Shown here piece by piece: positions 37,658 to 60,721 of a stretch of DNA of 64,000 bases. Within the stretch, counting starts at the first letter, position 1; each line of letters begins with the position of its first letter. The DNA is from Gammaproteobacteria bacterium. GTDB lineage: Bacteria > Pseudomonadota > Gammaproteobacteria > Eutrophobiales > Eutrophobiaceae. A program made the position numbers and the translations under genes. The stretch is from NCBI GenBank assembly GCA_963422205.2, contig CAXMWX010000005.1:224001-288000 (forward strand), read 5' to 3'. A model generated the notes under the pieces. That model did no database searches. It had not been told where the DNA came from and saw only the letters and a program-made list of their open reading frames with translations.

Positions 37658-38974
37658 TCACCGCCCCTCCAACGTCCTCGCCGTCCATACCACTGCACCA
37701 ATCACCACCATATCATCTGCCCAGCTCATAGACTCCCAGGTCGGATGGTCACTGATGAGCTGCCATTTGCTGCTCTCCTTATTCAAGCGCCTAACGACCA
37801 GGCCATCGTCAGTGCGGATGACATAAATGCGCTTTGACCGGCGCCGAGTACGGGCGCGGTCTACCAGTATCTTCGTTCCATCTGTCAGTGTCGGCTCCAT
37901 CGACTCACCAGATACCCCAATCACGGCGCATTGGGTTGGGTCAAGTGCATGCTCATCTAACCAGTCGCGGCAAAACCATAGTCGGCCTGAGATCTCCTCG
38001 GACAATGCCTCCATCCCACCACCTGCGGCACAAGCTAACTCAATCACGTCCACTGGCCGAGTGCTGGATGACACCCCAGTGTTCTTCTCATTTGCCACCC
38101 CATCGGTTAGTAAGACATCACGTAAATCATTCGGGATCGGGTCGCCACCGATGGCATGTACTGCACGCACCAGATTTTGAGTGCTGGCTTCGAACTCATC
38201 GCGGTGGTCAGCTACAAGCGGCCTCGGCACTGCCTGCTGCCACTCATAAGCCCTGGGGTCGGGTACTAGCAAGGCCGTTAAGCCCACTGCCGGCTTATCC
38301 CGAAACACCCCCACCACGGCACCCTGGCGGGCGATAAAACTTCGATTGACCTGCTCACCCACACTGCTGGTCTGGCCACTATGCGGCTTTCCCCAGCCGC
38401 GCAGTGTCAGGTGCGTGGCAGTAAAACCCAGTAATCGTTTGATGCGCTTGGAACCATATTCATCCTCCATCCACGGCCTCTGCCCAACCGCCAGCGGGGT
38501 GTTGGGTGATACGACACAGTAATCATCAGGCGAGATTCCTTCGGGGATCATGGATGATCCCTTGGCAATCGCATAGAAGGCATCTGGGTCGCCCGTTAAG
38601 CCCTGTGGCTCCGGCAGGTCGTTCTCAACCTGTTCAACATGTTTGCGGTGCTTCTGTGAATCCAGACCACAAGCGGCATGACCATCGACTGGTAAGTCGA
38701 CATCGACAAATGTTAGCGGAGTAGTGCCTGTGGTGCAGATGGCAGGCGATTCGGCTACCTGATCACCAGCCTTTCCACGGGGCGGGCCGATGTAAAACTC
38801 AAGGTCAAGAGCACGGCAGATTTCGGCCAGCCTATCGGATTTTGTGGCACGTTTTTCTAACACATAGCGAATCGCGTTGCCTGGCATCCCAGCATTGAGG
38901 GAAGCACGATATGGGGTCACTCCTCTGCGTTCTAATTCTTGGCGAACAACAGTCGTAATTTCCTCTGCTTCCAT
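37658..38974 (-). CDS. CI/LexA-like repressor: N-terminal HTH plus two S24 peptidase domains
   Basis: HTH (LAEICRALDL); domain 1 AKGSSMIP...IKRL; domain 2 VSGESMEPTL..G..ILVD...VVRRL...LISD...VIG.VVW. Confidence 0.88.
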   Translation of the reverse strand: MEAEEITTVVRQELERRGVTPYRASLNAGMPGNAIRYVLEKRATKSDRLAEICRALDLEFYIGPPRGKAGDQVAESPAICTTGTTPLTFVDVDLPVDGHAACGLDSQKHRKHVEQVENDLPEPQGLTGDPDAFYAIAKGSSMIPEGISPDDYCVVSPNTPLAVGQRPWMEDEYGSKRIKRLLGFTATHLTLRGWGKPHSGQTSSVGEQVNRSFIARQGAVVGVFRDKPAVGLTALLVPDPRAYEWQQAVPRPLVADHRDEFEASTQNLVRAVHAIGGDPIPNDLRDVLLTDGVANEKNTGVSSSTRPVDVIELACAAGGGMEALSEEISGRLWFCRDWLDEHALDPTQCAVIGVSGESMEPTLTDGTKILVDRARTRRRSKRIYVIRTDDGLVVRRLNKESSKWQLISDHPTWESMSWADDMVVIGAVVWTARTLEGR

Positions 38975-38990
38975 TAGCTATATATAGCTA
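38975..38990. promoter_or_regulatory. perfect 16-bp palindrome filling the cI/cro gap (candidate operator)
   Basis: TAGCTATATATAGCTA is self-complementary and sits between the divergent ATGs at 38974 and 38990. Confidence 0.6.
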
Positions 38991-39244
38991 TGGATAGCAA
39001 AATTATTCTCCAACTCGCCAAAATCTATGCTCAGGTAACAGGGCTTTCCTTGTCAACGGTATCAAATTACATGGCCGGATCAGGTGATTTTTTCGATCGC
39101 CTTGAGCGTGGTTGCGATGTTACTACCCGCCGTGCCGCCCGAGTTGTGCAACGTCTCAGCGATCACTGACCGCCCAACACACCTTGGCCTGTCGATATCC
39201 CCCGCCCTGCGCCAGATGCAACGGCGGTGAAGGAGGCAGCGTAA
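38990..39244 (+). pseudogene. Cro-like small regulator with a premature TGA at 39167
   Basis: MDSKIILQLAKIYAQVTGLSLSTVSNYMAGSGDFFDRLERGCDVTTRRAARVVQRLSDH*PPNTPWPVDIPRP...EAA; divergent from cI. Confidence 0.75.
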
Positions 39245-39384
39245 TGCAACGATTTATCAAGCCCGGTCTGACCCCACAGGGCTATCTCCGCTGCCAGTGT
39301 GGCGCCGAATGGAATCAGTCACCTATGGGACTGGAGCCACTGGATGCAAAAGCCTCGGCCGCCGCCGAGGCCAAGGGGTTTTGA
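39244..39384 (+). CDS. small phage-type hypothetical protein with CxC
   Basis: TAATG coupling to cro; AAGGAGG RBS; MQRFIKPGLTPQGYLRCQCGAEW. Confidence 0.5.
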   Translation: MQRFIKPGLTPQGYLRCQCGAEWNQSPMGLEPLDAKASAAAEAKGF

Positions 39385-39554
39385 TGTCATCAATGCACGC
39401 CGCCAGGTTGTCATCCTCATCCAGGCTCCAGAGGGTGCATACGCTGCGGGCCAATGGTGCCGAGATTAGTTGTCGCCAAATTATCCACCCGACCACGGGT
39501 GAGCGCCTATGGCTCTATCGACTAGCGAACCCAGCATCCCAGGAGGCAGCATGA
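39384..39554 (+). CDS. small phage-type hypothetical protein (possibly an internally deleted HTH protein)
   Basis: TGATG coupling; MHAARL...RLQRVH..LRANGAEI.CRQ...WLYR; ends in EAA. Confidence 0.45.
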   Translation: MSSMHAARLSSSSRLQRVHTLRANGAEISCRQIIHPTTGERLWLYRLANPASQEAA

Positions 39555-39582
39555 GACAGTCTAAACAGACAATGCAGCCAGG

Positions 39583-39822
39583 CTACAACAATTTTCCCAG
39601 CATGGCCACCACGCCGATACCGATGACCATCAAAGAGCCCAAACGCAGGGTTAAATCGTGTTTCAGACGGAGTTCCAGCATTTTCAGGTCTTCCTTGGTA
39701 GCCAGGCGCTCATCAATCAAGCGTGCTTGGGACTCAGCCAGTGCTTCCGCCTGCTGTTCGGTAAAACCAGCTTCTTTTAGGGTTTTGGCGTACGCCAGAC
39801 TATCAAAGGCCAATGCGCCCAT
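39583..39822 (-). CDS. DUF1640-like small coiled-coil membrane protein
   Basis: AFDSLAYAKTLKEAGFTEQQAEA...LATKEDL...C-terminal TM helix. Confidence 0.85.
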   Translation of the reverse strand: MGALAFDSLAYAKTLKEAGFTEQQAEALAESQARLIDERLATKEDLKMLELRLKHDLTLRLGSLMVIGIGVVAMLGKLL

Positions 39823-39858
39823 AGTTCATCCGTTTATGCTGTATCAACGAGGTGATAT

Positions 39859-40126
39859 TACCACAGGCTTGACAACGGCTAAAGCCAGGGCTAGGCCTCA
39901 TCGTACATCAACAAAATCTGATGTCGGGATTCGCATCCTGTTGCACAGAGCGTCCAAGGCGCTCAACCGAAGCGCTTTTTTTGTGTCTGCAATTTATGGC
40001 AGGCTGTTCAGGAGCACTTCGGTGCGCCGTCCTCTGTGCGGTAATGCGAATCCTGTACAGCCTGCCACCCGCTTAATTGACCTTAATGGTGGCAGTTCTC
40101 AAACCAACACAGAGGACACTGCCATG
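39859..40126 (+). repeat. C4/ash-type immunity cassette, copy 1 (TTGACA promoter, target sites, terminator-like hairpin, antisense RNA)
   Basis: Near-identical to 40406-40667 except at the specificity segments; TTGACA at 39869; GCGCT..AGCGC-T7 hairpin at ~39958-39983. Confidence 0.85.
39996..40068 (+). ncRNA. C4-type antisense RNA, copy 1
   Basis: TGGCAGGCTGT/ACAGCCTGCCA closing stem, GCAC-TTCG-GTGC hairpin, CCG-loop-CGG hairpin; both loops are complementary to flanking sites, as in P1 C4 / P4 CI RNA. Confidence 0.8.
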
Positions 40127-40193
40127 ATTGATGGCCGGCCTTGCCGCCGTGCGGGTTTTTTATGGGCATGGGCCTACTGCTGGCAAGCTAGGG

Positions 40194-40394
40194 TTAAGAG
40201 AAGGCTTTAAGGTATGGGAGAATTTCAACCACAATCACCAGCCCAATCATCCATTTTATGATGAGCAAATCCCGTTCAATTTTATTAAATCGATTCTCGT
40301 AAGAGGAAATTGCCTCGGCGGCTTTCCTCGCTTTCTCATCACTTGCGCCAGCATCAATCAGCGCATCGTAAACTTCTTTAATCATCGTTGCCAT
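40194..40394 (-). CDS. small coiled-coil membrane protein (DUF1640-like architecture)
   Basis: MATMIKEVYDALIDAGASDEKARKAAEAI...LLIIKWMIGLVIVV. Confidence 0.8.
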   Translation of the reverse strand: MATMIKEVYDALIDAGASDEKARKAAEAISSYENRFNKIERDLLIIKWMIGLVIVVEILPYLKAFS

Positions 40395-40405
40395 GCCGGG
40401 CAGTC

Positions 40406-40667
40406 TACCACAGGCTTGAAAACGGCTAAAGCCAAGGCTTCATCGTACATCAGCAAAATCTGATGTCGGGATTAGCACCCCGTGTTCACGAGCGCCAAGG
40501 CGCTCATCCGAAGCGCTTTTTTTGTGTCTGCAATTTATGGCAGGCTGTTCAGGAGCACTTCGGTGCGCCGTCCTCTGTGCGGTAAGGTCAATCCTGTTCG
40601 GCCTGCCGCCCTTAATTTGGAACTTAATGGTGGCAGTTCTTTCACCTTGACAAAGGAGGCCACCATG
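40406..40667 (+). repeat. C4/ash-type immunity cassette, copy 2
   Basis: Direct repeat of 39859-40126 with -35 TTGAAA, a short deletion around the -10, and different target sites. Confidence 0.85.
40537..40609 (+). ncRNA. C4-type antisense RNA, copy 2
   Basis: Same fold as copy 1; loop a identical (GTCCTCTGTG), loop b different (TAAGGTCAAT). Confidence 0.8.
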
Positions 40668-40750
40668 CCTGATTTACTCTCTATTGCCCGATCAGGCATG
40701 ACCCTATTCTTCCCTCGCTCAACTGCTGTGCTCGCACAGGAGATGGTCGC

Positions 40751-41056
40751 ATGATCTACCTGCATCCTGCCTCAGCCTGTTCACCAGAGCGCATACGAGC
40801 GGTTGAGAAAACCACTGGCCTGACTGCTGTAGTCGACATGGATGGTAAGGCGATTATGTCCAGGAAGTACGGTATGCCGCGGGTGCAGGGATGCACAAGA
40901 GTGGCTTTACCCTTATGTCCGCAGACCTCCTCCTCAAATTGTGAGCTCTCTGCGGCTACCTTTACCCATCGCACTGGATCAGATTCCCCTAATGATGTAG
41001 CCCCCGGTGCGGTGGGTATTTTTTCTGTGGATGCACAAGAGAGGGAATCCAGATGA
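40751..41056 (+). CDS. phage-type hypothetical protein
   Basis: ATGA-coupled ORF MIYLHPASACSPERIRAVEKTTGLTAVV. Confidence 0.45.
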   Translation: MIYLHPASACSPERIRAVEKTTGLTAVVDMDGKAIMSRKYGMPRVQGCTRVALPLCPQTSSSNCELSAATFTHRTGSDSPNDVAPGAVGIFSVDAQERESR

Positions 41057-41495
41057 ACACTAACGTATTCAAGCATCGGAGCAGAATATCAGAGAATGTG
41101 AAGTATAAATATATTGGCCTTAGCACTGATGAGGTTCTCTGGTAGCTGGTAACACTACAGGGCGAGCCTTGGCGTTTTTTGATGGTCAGCTGGTTCTTGC
41201 AGCCCTGAAACCATTAAAGGTCAAAGATACATCGGCCTATGACCGGCACCGTGATTTAGCTGGTTTGGTCAAGCATTGGATAGCTGCAGTTAAAGAGGTC
41301 TACATCGTCAAAGTCGACAGAAAAAGCAGCAGGCTAAAACATCCTATTGGATTTTCCGATGGGCAATTTCTAAAAGCCATGAAACAGGCTTATGGTTTGC
41401 CGCTAGAAGGCCGGAATGGTCACTATGCGCCTATTCAAGCCGCCTCTGATCATGCTGCGCCCACACAATTACCTGGTGAGGATATTTGCCCATGA
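41053..41495 (+). pseudogene. hypothetical protein with an in-frame TAG (41143) and a frameshift
   Basis: ATGA-coupled start at 41053; continues in ORF 41169-41495. Confidence 0.45.
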
Positions 41496-42692: not shown

Positions 42693-42736
42693 TTCTGACA
42701 TGATGGCATTAATCTGGGTTGTCAGGTGGAGGTGTG

Positions 42737-43546
42737 GATACCCTTTGATATACCCCTTCAATACCTTATAGATACCCTATCGAATACCCTTTGGGAACCC
42801 TTTAGCGAGGTAAAAATTATGCGAGATTATGGCACGATAGACTGTCGGTTGTGGGATCATCCTGATTTTAAGAGCCTGTCCGTTGAGGCCAAGCTGTTGA
42901 TAGCCTATCTACGGACTTGCAAGCACTGCAATCTCATCTGGTGTTATCACCTTCCGGTTGGGTATATCGCATCAGATCTTGGATACCCCATTGATAGGGT
43001 ATGGGATACCCTATCCGAGGCTGCTCAAAATAGCTTTGCCAGGTATTGCAAGACTACTGAATATGTATTTATCCCCAAGTATCTGGATGAGTTTCCGATC
43101 AAGGGTGAAAAACAGCAGTTGGGAGCTTTGAAGATCATTCAGTCAATTCCCAACAAGTGTGTTTATCTTACTGACTTAATCACCCGGTTCCTGGAGCGCG
43201 ATGACCTGCATGAGAGAATAAGAAATACCCTATCCGATACCCTATCTAATACCCTATTTGATACCCAACCCCATACCCATTCTGCTCCATCGGATACCCT
43301 TTCGATGCCTTCTAAATTAGACAGACAGGAGCAGAAAAACACGGCTACAGCTGACGTTCCAGCCACGGTTGCGGATATGACGGCAGCTACGCCTGCCACT
43401 CCCGAAACTACACCCGTTATTGTTTCCGATAAAAGTACGCATGTTATTGATTTAGTTAATAAGTTCCAAGGTGATGAGAAAATGGAAAATACCCTATCCC
43501 ATACCCTATCGGATACCCCTTCAATACCCCATACCATACCCCCCCC
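42737..43546 (+). repeat. iteron arrays (ATACCCTATC-type unit, ~12-bp period): putative replication origin
   Basis: Four clusters at ~42737-42805, 42981-43015, 43225-43303 and 43489-43546, upstream of and inside the rep gene. Confidence 0.8.
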
Positions 43547-43986
43547 GATTACAGGAACAGGATCAGGAACGGAAAAAAACCTTTGTCCCGCAAGCGGGAC
43601 GATCGAAACGCTCAGGACAGGTACAAGCCGTTTTCCAGGCTTGGCAACGATACTGCAAGCACCCCAGGGCAAACCTGGACGACAAGCGCAAGCGCCATAT
43701 CGCCAAGGCGCTGAAAGCTGGCTACAGCGTGGAGCAGTGCATTACTGCGATACGAGGCTGTACCAACACGCCACACAACATGGGCGCCAACGAAGGTGGC
43801 GAGCGCTATGACGGCATCCATGTAATTTTTCGTGATGCTGACCAGATTGACCGTTTCATTCACAATTTTCACAACCCACCAGTGCCAAAGACCGAGGCAG
43901 AGAAGCGAGTGATGTCTAACATCCAGGCTGCACAAGCGGCGATGCAAAAATTGCAGGAACAGGAAAATAATTATGCACAACACTGA
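42819..43986 (+). pseudogene. phage replication initiator (O-like), frameshifted at ~43540-43580
   Basis: MRDYG...LW...FKSLS.EAKLL..YL.TC.H N-terminus; iteron-coded linker; C-terminal VF..W...HPRA.LD.KR...AI.GC...P.NMG domain lies in the +1 frame. Confidence 0.8.
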
Positions 43987-44572: not shown

Positions 44573-45096
44573 TTCATCAAATCCTTTTCTGGTTTTCAGG
44601 TTATCTGCCGTGCCGTTTGATTAACAACGATGGTCAGCCTTACCTGGAGCGGTATTTTTTATTTTCCTGTTGTGGACTGACGGCGTACCTGCACCGCTTT
44701 GTGGGGCAGGATGGCGATCGAGGGCTGCACGATCACCCATGGGACTACTCGCTGGCTATCGTTCTGGCTGGCGGGTATGTTGAGGAGCGTTTGAACGGCT
44801 TTGATCCTGCTGTTGGTCTGGTTATCGGTGAGCGGCTAGTCAGATGGTGTAATCTCATCACAGCGCATGATTTTCATCGCATTAGTCGGACACAGAGAGA
44901 TACCTGGACGCTGTTCATTCATACAAAGCGTATAAAGGGCTAGGGGTTTATGGAGTATGGCCATCCGGGTGAGCGAGTGCATCGCTTTCTCTACCACCAG
45001 CCTGAATTACCGGGGACGCATCACAACTGGATGGAAGCAGCATCACGAGGCAGTGAGGCAGCTCGTCAACCTCTGGTTGCTTCAGGAGTGAGGTGA
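44569..45096 (+). pseudogene. phage cupin-like protein with TAG at 44941 (in a G-W-G-F motif)
   Basis: YLERY, LHRF...D.DR.LHDHPW, GGY.EE, FHRI, WTLF; the frame stays open after the stop to a TGA overlapping the MTase start. Confidence 0.7.
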
Positions 45097-45800
45097 GTGT
45101 GCGGGTACTTGATCTGTTCAGTGGTATCGGTGGTTTTAGTCTCGGTCTTGCGATGGCGAGCAAGGCATTTCGGACTATTGCTTTTTGCGAGCGAGATGAG
45201 AAATGTCAGAAGCTGCTTAATCTGCGTTGGCCTGGCATTCCAGTTTACCCGGATATTAGAAAGCTAAATGCAAGTGAAATACAAACAGATGTCGTTGTTG
45301 GTGGATACCCATGTCAGCCCTTTTCCGTGGCCGGGAAGCGCCGTGGCGAAGCGGATGACCGCTATCTCTGGCCAGAGATGTTACGAGTTATCAAGGATTG
45401 CAGGCCACGATGGGTTATTGGTGAGAACGTTGCTGGTCACTTATCGATGGGGATCGACAATGTGTTATCTGACTTGGAAGCCGAGGGCTACGCCTGCTGG
45501 CCGACCATTATTCCAGCTTGTGCCGTCAATGCCCCGCACCGGCGGGACAGAGTATGGATTATTGCCAACGCCGACGGCACAGGATGCAAAAAACAAGGGC
45601 TCGCAGAGCCAACAGAAGCGCAATACCAAATCGCTGAACGCAGTTGTCGGCGGGCCGCTGAACCCGCAGTGGGTAGAGTGGTTAATGGGTTACCCAATAG
45701 GGTGGACAGACTTAGGCAACTCGGCAACAGCGTCGTCCCTCAAGTCGTCGCAGCTATTGGATGTGCAATAATACGAGCGGAGCGGAAATATGAATCATAA
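45093..45800 (+). CDS. DNA (cytosine-5) methyltransferase, large subunit
   Basis: DLFSGIGGF (I), GGYPCQPFS (IV), ENV (VI), HRRDRVWI (VIII), LGNSVVP (X). Confidence 0.92.
   Translation: MSVRVLDLFSGIGGFSLGLAMASKAFRTIAFCERDEKCQKLLNLRWPGIPVYPDIRKLNASEIQTDVVVGGYPCQPFSVAGKRRGEADDRYLWPEMLRVIKDCRPRWVIGENVAGHLSMGIDNVLSDLEAEGYACWPTIIPACAVNAPHRRDRVWIIANADGTGCKKQGLAEPTEAQYQIAERSCRRAAEPAVGRVVNGLPNRVDRLRQLGNSVVPQVVAAIGCAIIRAERKYES
45268..45771 (+). CDS. nested alternative-frame small subunit of the C5 methyltransferase (start uncertain)
   Basis: LLPTPTA...LNPQWVEWLMGYPIGWTD, a motif IX-like segment missing from the main frame. Confidence 0.7.
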   Translation: MQVKYKQMSLLVDTHVSPFPWPGSAVAKRMTAISGQRCYELSRIAGHDGLLVRTLLVTYRWGSTMCYLTWKPRATPAGRPLFQLVPSMPRTGGTEYGLLPTPTAQDAKNKGSQSQQKRNTKSLNAVVGGPLNPQWVEWLMGYPIGWTDLGNSATASSLKSSQLLDVQ

Positions 45801-60634: not shown

Positions 60635-60655
60635 ATTGGTGCCGATGGCCGGACT
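60635..60655. repeat. island attachment site (tRNA-proximal copy)
   Basis: Identical to 31973-31993; overlaps the tRNA 3' end. Confidence 0.95.
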
Positions 60656-60721
60656 CGAACCGGCACGCCGTCAGGCACTACCCCCTCAAGATAGCGTGTC
60701 TACCAATTCCACCACATCGGC
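60637..60721 (-). tRNA. tRNA-Leu (anticodon GAG)
   Basis: GCCGATG acceptor stem, TGGTAGA D-loop, CTATC-TTGAGGG-GGTAG anticodon arm, long variable arm, GGTTCGAGTCC, CCA end; follows secG. Confidence 0.97.

Follow-up and report, generated by a model that had tools for sequence, protein, structure and literature searches.

Tandem C4-type antisense RNA cassettes with cross-complementary recognition sites in a gammaproteobacterial prophage

A prophage region in the stretch of DNA analysed here (64,000 nucleotides of contig CAXMWX010000005.1, Gammaproteobacteria bacterium; hereafter the window) carries two tandem units that, judged by sequence, are genuine immI-type riboregulatory cassettes: in each, a terminator-bearing IsrK/a1b1 decoy is followed by a C4 antisense RNA and by a leader in which the Shine-Dalgarno (SD) sequence is flanked and covered by the b2 and a2 sites. 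C4/IsrK modules are a textbook example of immunity specificity set by RNA only, and descriptions of them have been of single, self-contained cassettes. Here, the sole full two-site RNA/leader pair that we predict is the one between the second RNA, C4-2, and the leader of the first cassette, T1. C4-1, for its part, is predicted to match fully only its own decoy, IsrK-1, and to reach T1 solely via the a' loop that both RNAs share. This cross-complementarity is a real and unusual feature; an interlocked gate built on it would be a prediction. The features of the region are collected in Table 1.

Table 1. Features of the two cassettes and of their surroundings (positions in the window)
Feature	Position	Strand	Remarks
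CI-like repressor, 438 aa	37658-38974	-	S24 peptidase domains
Small phrog_7669 gene	38990-39169		59-aa product
Segment with both cassettes	39170-40748		~1.6 kb; missing from sibling prophage on contig C14
79-aa small ORF	39583-39822	-	weak CCDC90-like/DUF1640 match, phrog_17872; divergent from cassette 1
Cassette 1 promoter-like TTGACA-17-TAGGCC	39869-39897	+	geometry as at other C4 loci; -10 hexamer imperfect
IsrK-1, a1b1-type decoy sRNA	39905-39985	+	isrK match 39905-39982, 46.8 bits, below gathering
IsrK-1 sites	b1 GGATTCGCAT 39927-36; a1 GCACAGAG 39943-50	+	
IsrK-1 terminator stem	39956-78	+	8 pairs, then U run
C4-1 antisense RNA	39992-40072	+	Rfam covariance model, 63.7 bits
C4-1 loops	a' 40029-38; b' ATGCGAATCC 40044-53	+	
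Leader T1	40076-40126	+	SD, ATG 40124
T1 sites	b2 ATTGACCTTA 40076-85; a2/SD CACAGAGGAC 40108-17	+	b2 cognate to C4-2, not C4-1
T1 leader ORF	40124-40210	+	28 codons
66-aa small ORF	40194-40394	-	between the cassettes; no family match
Cassette 2 promoter remnant TTGAAA-12-AAGGCT	40416-40439	+	spacer shortened by 5-nt deletion
IsrK-2	40447-40526	+	isrK match 40447-40523, 56.0 bits, above gathering
IsrK-2 site positions	b1 GGATTAGCAC 40469-78; a1 GTTCACGAG 40484-92	+	cognate to neither C4
IsrK-2 terminator stem	40497-40519	+	8 pairs, then U run
C4-2 antisense RNA	40533-40613	+	Rfam covariance model, 56.6 bits
C4-2 loops	a' 40570-79; b' TAAGGTCAAT 40583-92	+	
Leader T2	40617-40667	+	b2 position 40617-27; a2/SD 40649-58; ATG 40665
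T2 leader ORF	40665-40754	+	29 codons; stop overlaps next early ORF's ATG (ATGA)

Both C4 RNAs exceeded the gathering score of the Rfam C4 family (RF01695; 45 bits), which bears out the C4-type call made for both units in an earlier, sequence-only reading of this DNA, and a custom C4 model returned the same two RNAs at 85.1 and 83.2 bits. In the cmscan alignments, both show the C4 fold, with a long closing stem around a UUCG-type hairpin, an a'-loop hairpin and a single-stranded b' segment; the closing stem contains one non-standard pair in C4-1 and two in C4-2. Minimum-free-energy folding gave the closing stem for both RNAs and, for C4-1, also the a' hairpin. A C4 gene is expected to yield a stable, processed RNA, about 77 nt in length, by which translation of the leader is repressed. 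An intrinsic terminator lies directly 5' of the C4 gene in both cassettes. Of the decoy models, isrK (RF01394) has a gathering score of 50 bits and c4-a1b1 (RF03163) one of 46.7 bits, and both c4-a1b1 matches remained below gathering, with 31.3 bits at 40434-40486 and 17.4 bits at 39892-39944.

The two copies lie 541-547 nt apart and are 88% identical over 318 aligned columns (39823-40135 versus 40370-40676), an alignment that contains the ~265-nt cassettes. The copies share an identical block of 72 nt that extends from the terminator to include the a' loop; in contigs of two public runs, the common piece measures 78 nt. With a 5-nt indel entered as five columns, 23 of the 58 columns in the five recognition segments (b1, a1, b', b2 and a2) differ, compared with 21 of 207 elsewhere (Fisher p about 9e-7), in agreement with the earlier description of ~265-bp repeats that differ mainly at the pairing segments. 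Changes amount to 6-9 per 10-nt recognition segment, and the structural blocks are near-identical.

Complementarity over 10 of 10 positions was found between b1 of IsrK-1 and b' of C4-1 (39927-36 with 40044-53), between a' of C4-1 and a2 of T1 (40029-38 with 40108-17), between b2 of T1 and b' of C4-2 (40076-85 with 40583-92) and between a2 of T1 and a' of C4-2 (40108-17 with 40570-79). In addition, a' is complementary to the 8-nt GCACAGAG at 39943-50. Expressed as runs, C4-2 matches T1 over 10 nt at b and 9-10 nt at a, and C4-1 matches IsrK-1 over 10 nt at b (12 with one G-U pair) and 7-8 nt at a; on T1, C4-1 attains 9-10 nt at a and only 3 nt at b. The flanks of cassette 2, IsrK-2 and T2, gave runs of 3-5 with either RNA, excepting a GGGATT/AATCC flank that is common to all b sites. 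With respect to its own cassette, C4-1 has a downstream a2 without b2 and C4-2 has neither site in T2, where its runs are 4-5 nt; own upstream a1 and b1 sites are present for cassette 1 (b 10, a 7-8) and absent for cassette 2. Computed duplex energies were -15.1 kcal/mol for a' on T1 versus -7.1 kcal/mol for a' on T2, and, on T1, -12.7 kcal/mol for b' of C4-2 versus -6.0 kcal/mol for b' of C4-1. The sequence-only reading had already paired loop b of the first RNA with its own upstream site, loop b of the second RNA and the shared loop a with the downstream leader of cassette 1, and the shared loop a in part with 39943-39950, and had found the sites of cassette 2 to fit neither RNA; each of these assignments recurs here, the first three pairings as exact 10/10 matches, the partial one as an 8-nt match and the last as runs of 3-5 only.

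Each of the 10-mers occurs 2-8 times in the genome, both strands together, as compared with about 5.7 occurrences expected in 2.99 Mb. Given this near-expected frequency, a perfect partner that lies at the homologous site is more than chance would give. Moreover, among 643 comparisons of non-cognate RNAs and leaders from other loci, no b2 run of 9 was seen and a single a2 run reached 9. The runs of 3-5 at the flanks of cassette 2 coincide with the mode of this null distribution.

Site geometry at other loci was taken from 13 C4 loci; the class-wide sample had C4 in 7 of 150 other genomes. In the 13 loci, b2 lies 1-7 nt and a2 29-39 nt 3' of the RNA, with a2 over the SD, and b1 and a1 lie 41-67 nt 5' of the RNA, with runs of 7-10 nt. 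Among 131 unique C4-pattern matches, a set that includes the two window cassettes and five matches unconfirmed by the custom C4 model, b2 was cognate (run of at least 7) in 116 and a2 in 106, which upholds the earlier statement that one RNA normally serves both flanks. The typical b run is 7, as seen in 91 of the 131 pattern matches. Both downstream sites were missing in 5 of 124 other confirmed cassettes, and the upstream sites were still cognate in four of these five.

The genome (2.99 Mb, 98% complete) was searched for further C4 RNAs and targets. A third C4 gene was found neither among the best 150 of 702 genome candidates with Rfam nor among the best 150 of 935 with the custom model, both of which returned only the window's two, and blastn of the genome likewise gave only the two window copies. 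No RNA carrying both complements of the T2 or the IsrK-2 sites was present in the genome beyond the trivial antisense strand, in a search whose positive controls, C4-2 with T1 and C4-1 with IsrK-1, were both recovered. For the earlier suggestion that cassette 2 reads the C4 RNAs of other elements, this genome thus offers no candidate RNA. Searching it with a strict pattern for a leader of C4-1 returned only the antisense strand of C4-1, and a loose 7+7 scan of the genome for trans targets gave 34 and 37 matches, about background. The best of them, an 8+9-nt site on contig C9, was considered as a C4-2 target and rejected, as it lies within a long coding ORF and has the wrong spacing. Contig C5 carries a degenerate IsrK-like remnant without a C4. 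Of 125 further genomes from the family, none yielded a C4 (31 candidates scored per genome), and a search for a displaced leader in G039 gave pattern counts equal to those of the reversed-pattern control.

Among loci fetched by the C4 pattern, the custom model confirmed a C4 in 154 of 160; three of these 154 (L232, L251 and L299) have two same-strand C4 genes within 1.5 kb, and a fourth tandem array (L032) came from the class sample. Tandem C4 arrays are rare but recurrent. The four arrays resemble the window in having two same-strand C4 genes, 0.26-1.2 kb apart. In each of them the downstream cassette fits its own RNA at every one of b1, a1, b2 and a2. As to the upstream C4, L032 and L251 have an orphan and L299 has an independent canonical cassette; that of L232 is a near-identical copy in which only b' departs, and its SD is mutated. 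They differ from the window in that the second RNA matches the first leader in none of them, which makes the wiring in the window unusual. Closer relatives did not emerge: 39560-41060 had no blastn match among phage records, a 21-nt core pattern was absent from species genomes and occurred once in IMG/VR, as a chance coding match without an Rfam match, and a window-specific stem pattern returned three single unrelated cassettes, and no close relative, from metagenome contigs. A 17-nt hairpin pattern was discarded, its matches being mostly chance ones in GC-rich genomes. In the available part of the C4, IsrK and immI literature, no description of tandem C4 arrays was found.

The cassettes occupy the early region of the prophage. 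In the window, the phrog_7669 gene next to the CI-like repressor gene is followed by the 79-aa ORF on the minus strand, cassette 1, the 66-aa ORF, likewise on the minus strand, and cassette 2. The two small ORFs show no detectable relationship to each other, and no C4 lies near the 14 loci with a homologue of the 66-aa ORF or near the one locus with a homologue of the 79-aa ORF. On the 3' side of cassette 2 lie small unknown ORFs, an HTH/excisionase-like gene, pieces of a replication initiator and a DNA methyltransferase; the initiator and the methyltransferase are each split into a pair of ORFs in overlapping frames, and the first early ORF carries an insertion of a dispersed repeat. The interval 40749-41024 was considered as a MITE and is actually a gene common to the sibling prophage plus a 57-nt repeat insertion. 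Ant, KilA and Bro domains were detected neither by Pfam in 10 ORFs scanned nor by PHROGs in 20, and the icd-like leader gene and antirepressor of a P1-type immI operon were sought here and not found. Since no antirepressor domain was detected in the scanned downstream ORFs, the target of the module is not a P1-type ant gene.

The sibling prophage, on contig C14 of the same genome, has a CI-like gene and a 97-aa phrog_7669 homologue, which is 49% identical to the 59-aa window product over 53 residues, runs on for a further 27 and directly overlaps the homologue of ORF 40751. Because these C14 genes join directly, the segment 39170-40748 represents an indel between two prophages.

The promoter-like element of cassette 1 lacks the usual final T of the -10 hexamer. 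At other C4 loci, canonical promoter geometry was found in 36 upstream regions out of 65 unique ones; a generic promoter scan returned no sigma-70-like site in 39400-41200. Because the promoter spacer of cassette 2 is 5 nt short, this cassette may depend on read-through past T1. In T1, a terminator-like hairpin (40140-55) with a T run lies 16-32 nt into the leader ORF, and in T2 the start codon lies under an 8-bp helix and a 10-bp hairpin (40664-73/40691-700). The start-codon hairpin is kept in both leaders, with different partner sequences against the same upstream block, suggesting that both leaders were recently under constraint. The 28-codon ORF behind T1 has no evident function. The path of read-through holds up to three terminator-like sites and the convergent 66-aa gene.

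Several explanations of this arrangement have to be weighed. That it is an assembly artefact, a collapsed or chimeric repeat, is extremely improbable. Admittedly, the 72-78 identical nt are longer than many assembler words, and contigs of both public runs that we consulted break at the common 78 nt. However, a 523-nt piece (40015-40537), found in contigs of the two runs with 0 differences, joins unique parts of both cassettes and so connects b' of C4-1 with the C4-2 5' stem, and the 78-nt common piece is covered 2.1-2.2 times as deeply as the 523-nt piece in both runs, which come from one study and may represent the source sample. The independent contigs and the depth ratio of about 2 fit a stable tandem. 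A one-cassette subpopulation, suggested by a low depth of the 523-nt piece in run X2, was dropped from consideration, the ratio being 2.1-2.2 in both runs. We also consider it very unlikely that the cassettes are a decaying, non-functional relic in a defective prophage. The sites of cassette 2 match nothing, its promoter spacer has suffered a deletion, and the split initiator and methyltransferase and the repeat insertion in the first early ORF would be in keeping with decay. However, the changes cluster in the recognition segments, where decay should spread evenly, the C4 fold, the terminator and the leader hairpin are intact in both cassettes, and two pairs are still perfectly complementary over 10 nt.

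Two functional explanations also deserve attention. The extra C4 genes might have their main targets in trans, in the leaders of phages that enter or share the cell, and so provide dual-specificity immunity with two immunity types, the local flanks being leftovers; we regard this as rather unlikely for the window. In its favor, L032 and L251 each have an intact orphan C4 5' of a canonical cassette, L232 has a near-identical copy with only b' changed, a cognate decoy without a cognate leader occurs in 4 of 124 other confirmed cassettes, both window RNAs score well above the family cut-off and, according to PMC6906374, a few immI nucleotides set the heteroimmunity of P1 and P7. Yet no matching C4-1 leader is present elsewhere in this genome, the one 8+9-nt site for C4-2, on contig C9, is coding and wrongly spaced, and the finding of C4 in 0 of 125 family genomes suggests that phages of this kind are rare in the lineage. 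Alternatively, the cassettes could form a selected two-RNA circuit, much like the interlocked gate proposed in the sequence-only reading, in which T1 would integrate C4-2, acting through b' and a', and C4-1, acting through a' and titrated by IsrK-1, to gate read-through into cassette 2 and the early operon; this we consider unlikely. A b run of 10 tops the natural range, as compared with the typical 7, cassette 2 seems to be without a properly spaced promoter, the terminator-like hairpin starts 16 nt into the T1 ORF, where ribosomes would melt it, and the leader hairpins are kept in both copies. On the other hand, the arrangement comes from a single genome, C4-2 alone carries both matching loops and would on paper suffice, the downstream cassette is self-cognate in 4 of 4 other arrays with none cross-wired, and the convergent 66-aa gene and the strong IsrK-2 terminator would obstruct read-through.

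We incline to the view that the two cassettes, wired as read here, are a recombination mosaic of heteroimmune immI-type modules. Near-identical structural blocks beside recognition segments changed at 6-9 of 10 positions are unlike the outcome of neutral decay after duplication and fit an exchange among closely related heteroimmune alleles, in which the crossovers would have fallen in conserved stems. At least four b types (X, Y, Z and W) and three a types are present; in the order b1, b', b2, cassette 1 has X, X, Y and cassette 2 has Z, Y, W. The b2 core of T2 fits the general b2 consensus and shows an 8-nt match to b' of C4 genes from elsewhere, among them those in L258, L219 and L201. This b2 looks like an allele rather than the product of random decay, such matches being eased by the common scaffold. 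The mosaic needs several exchange events, and no single event was found that would lead to it from two canonical parents. Of the specificity-shuffling array proposed in the sequence-only reading, the mosaic pattern and the identical blocks of 72-78 nt support the shuffling, whereas ongoing exchange is unsupported, the depth ratio of ~2 fitting a stable tandem.

If the mosaic is active as it stands, its working may be sketched from the P1 immI model and the work on IsrK of Gifsy-1. By analogy, transcription would start from TTGACA-17-TAGGCC, most transcripts would end as IsrK-1, and read-through would yield C4-1 and T1. C4-2, with both cognate loops, would occlude the SD and the AUG at 40124, and C4-1 would offer T1 only its a' and could be titrated by the decoy IsrK-1. 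Translation of the T1 leader ORF would then decide whether transcription passes the internal terminator-like hairpin. Should cassette 2 rely on read-through from T1, C4-2 would limit its own synthesis in a negative feedback; the early operon behind T2 would be predicted to escape C4 control. We are doubtful of going further, to a selected RNA-RNA network in which C4-2 would throttle its own read-through and the early operon while C4-1 and IsrK-1 tune the common a2, or to arrays that would generate new specificities. In such a network, C4-1 and its decoy IsrK-1 would compete for the common a2 site and thereby tune the C4-2 gate. More generally, tandem arrays, with their identical stems and variable loops, may be a natural substrate for the origin of new immunity specificities by unequal exchange.

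The window locus and the four other arrays show that C4 cassettes can be tandem and indicate that recombination at the conserved stems can reassort loops, decoys and leaders independently of one another. Should the non-self wiring be functional, it would constitute a natural small circuit of antisense RNAs and a ready system for studying two-loop specificity; if it is a scar, it would document a recombination route to heteroimmune types.

In the P1 immI mechanism, a' and b' reportedly pair with a2 and b2 over the ribosome-binding site of the leader, and with a1 and b1 upstream. Heteroimmunity of P1 and P7 arises via minor immI differences, according to PMC6906374. The present module resembles the P1/P7 immI operon (c4 - icd - ant1/2) in its RNA family, its two recognition elements and its short leader ORF. 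It differs in that the cassettes are tandem, with the cognate leader of the second RNA in the first cassette, in that no icd or ant homologue was detected, the module residing in a prophage that is integrated and encodes an S24 CI-type repressor, and in that it precedes early and replication genes. The CI immunity of P4 acts by premature termination with a single RNA, and in both respects differs from the module described here. The P4 CI RNA, with seqA, seqB and seqC, is an immunity RNA from the leader of the early/replication operon and pairs with both flanks, according to PMC4825925; the likeness lies in a leader-derived immunity RNA with pairing sites on either side of its gene. The same source reports for Gifsy-1 (Hershko-Shalev 2016, PMC4825925) that IsrK terminates leakily, that read-through yields the C4-like STnc1160 and an mRNA, and that IsrK is complementary to processed STnc1160. 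The isrK - orf45/STnc1160 - anrP module of Gifsy-1 shares with the window an IsrK-type sRNA and a terminator directly 5' of a C4-like RNA, and differs from it in being a single cassette with an antirepressor, whereas here IsrK-1 is cognate to C4-1 and IsrK-2 to nothing.

A tandem duplication of 569 nt, comprising a whole cassette and its leader ORF, was also encountered in an alphaproteobacterial MAG (locus L232). The two C4 copies at this locus differ solely in the b' loop; copy 1 carries a mutated SD (AAGGA to AAGCA) and lacks a cognate b2. As the contig begins within the array, further copies may exist. Two other loci, L032 and L251, each hold an orphan C4 gene that scores well with the model, without cognate sites of either the upstream (a1/b1) or the downstream leader (a2/b2) type and immediately followed downstream by a fully canonical cassette. 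Furthermore, in four of the 124 confirmed cassettes (L057, L103, L194 and L212) the upstream a1/b1 sites are cognate and the downstream leader is not; the targets of these RNAs, if any exist, are located elsewhere.

The own genome of the window harbors, on another contig (C5), a degenerate copy of the 5' part of a cassette. This remnant retains the promoter block, IsrK-like hairpins and a b1 site (GGATTCGCC) resembling type X, the b type of C4-1/IsrK-1 in the window, and is not followed by a C4 gene. Two sibling prophage regions on contig C14 both encode a related CI-like repressor. In the first of these, a phrog_7669-like gene and a homologue of ORF 40751, the early ORF just behind the cassette 2 leader ORF, are directly adjacent, with no C4 module. 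ORF 40751 itself (40751-41056) holds a 57-nt in-frame insertion, missing from its C14 sibling gene, that is a copy of a dispersed repeat of ~52 nt also present elsewhere in this genome and in those of several other members of its family.

In the window prophage, homology to a replication initiator is divided between two overlapping frames, and so is homology to a DNA methyltransferase; frameshifts during prophage decay may account for this. At 438 aa, the CI-like repressor is longer than usual, and it contains two Peptidase_S24 stretches. A tRNA gene whose variable arm is long could represent an attachment site of this prophage.

Coordinates of features in the window, its genome and other loci
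Feature	Location	Positions	Strand
Leader pairing segments	window	40085-40099 / 40118-40126
Leader pairing segments	window	40626-40640 / 40658-40667
CI-like repressor	window	37658-38974
Insertion in ORF 40751	window	40856-40912
Replication-initiator frames	window	42726-43811 / 43471-43986
DNA-methyltransferase frames	window	45093-45800 / 45268-45771
tRNA gene	window	60640-60721	minus
Sibling prophage regions	G000:C14	14817-16709; 156825-158628
Cassette remnant	L023 (G000:C5)	2273-2367 (188772-188866)
Further ~52-nt repeat copies	G000:C9; G000:C14	171659-171710; 173155-173209
Tandem C4 copies	L232	46-129; 615-698
Orphan C4 gene	L032	1501-1584
Orphan C4 gene	L251	557-639

Both window leaders contain an identical block, AAUGGUGGCAGUUCU, that is able to pair with the region around the start codon; the partner sequence is ACUGCCAU in one leader and GCCACCAU in the second. 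Other C4 leaders show comparable GGUGG...CCACC-AUG arrangements.
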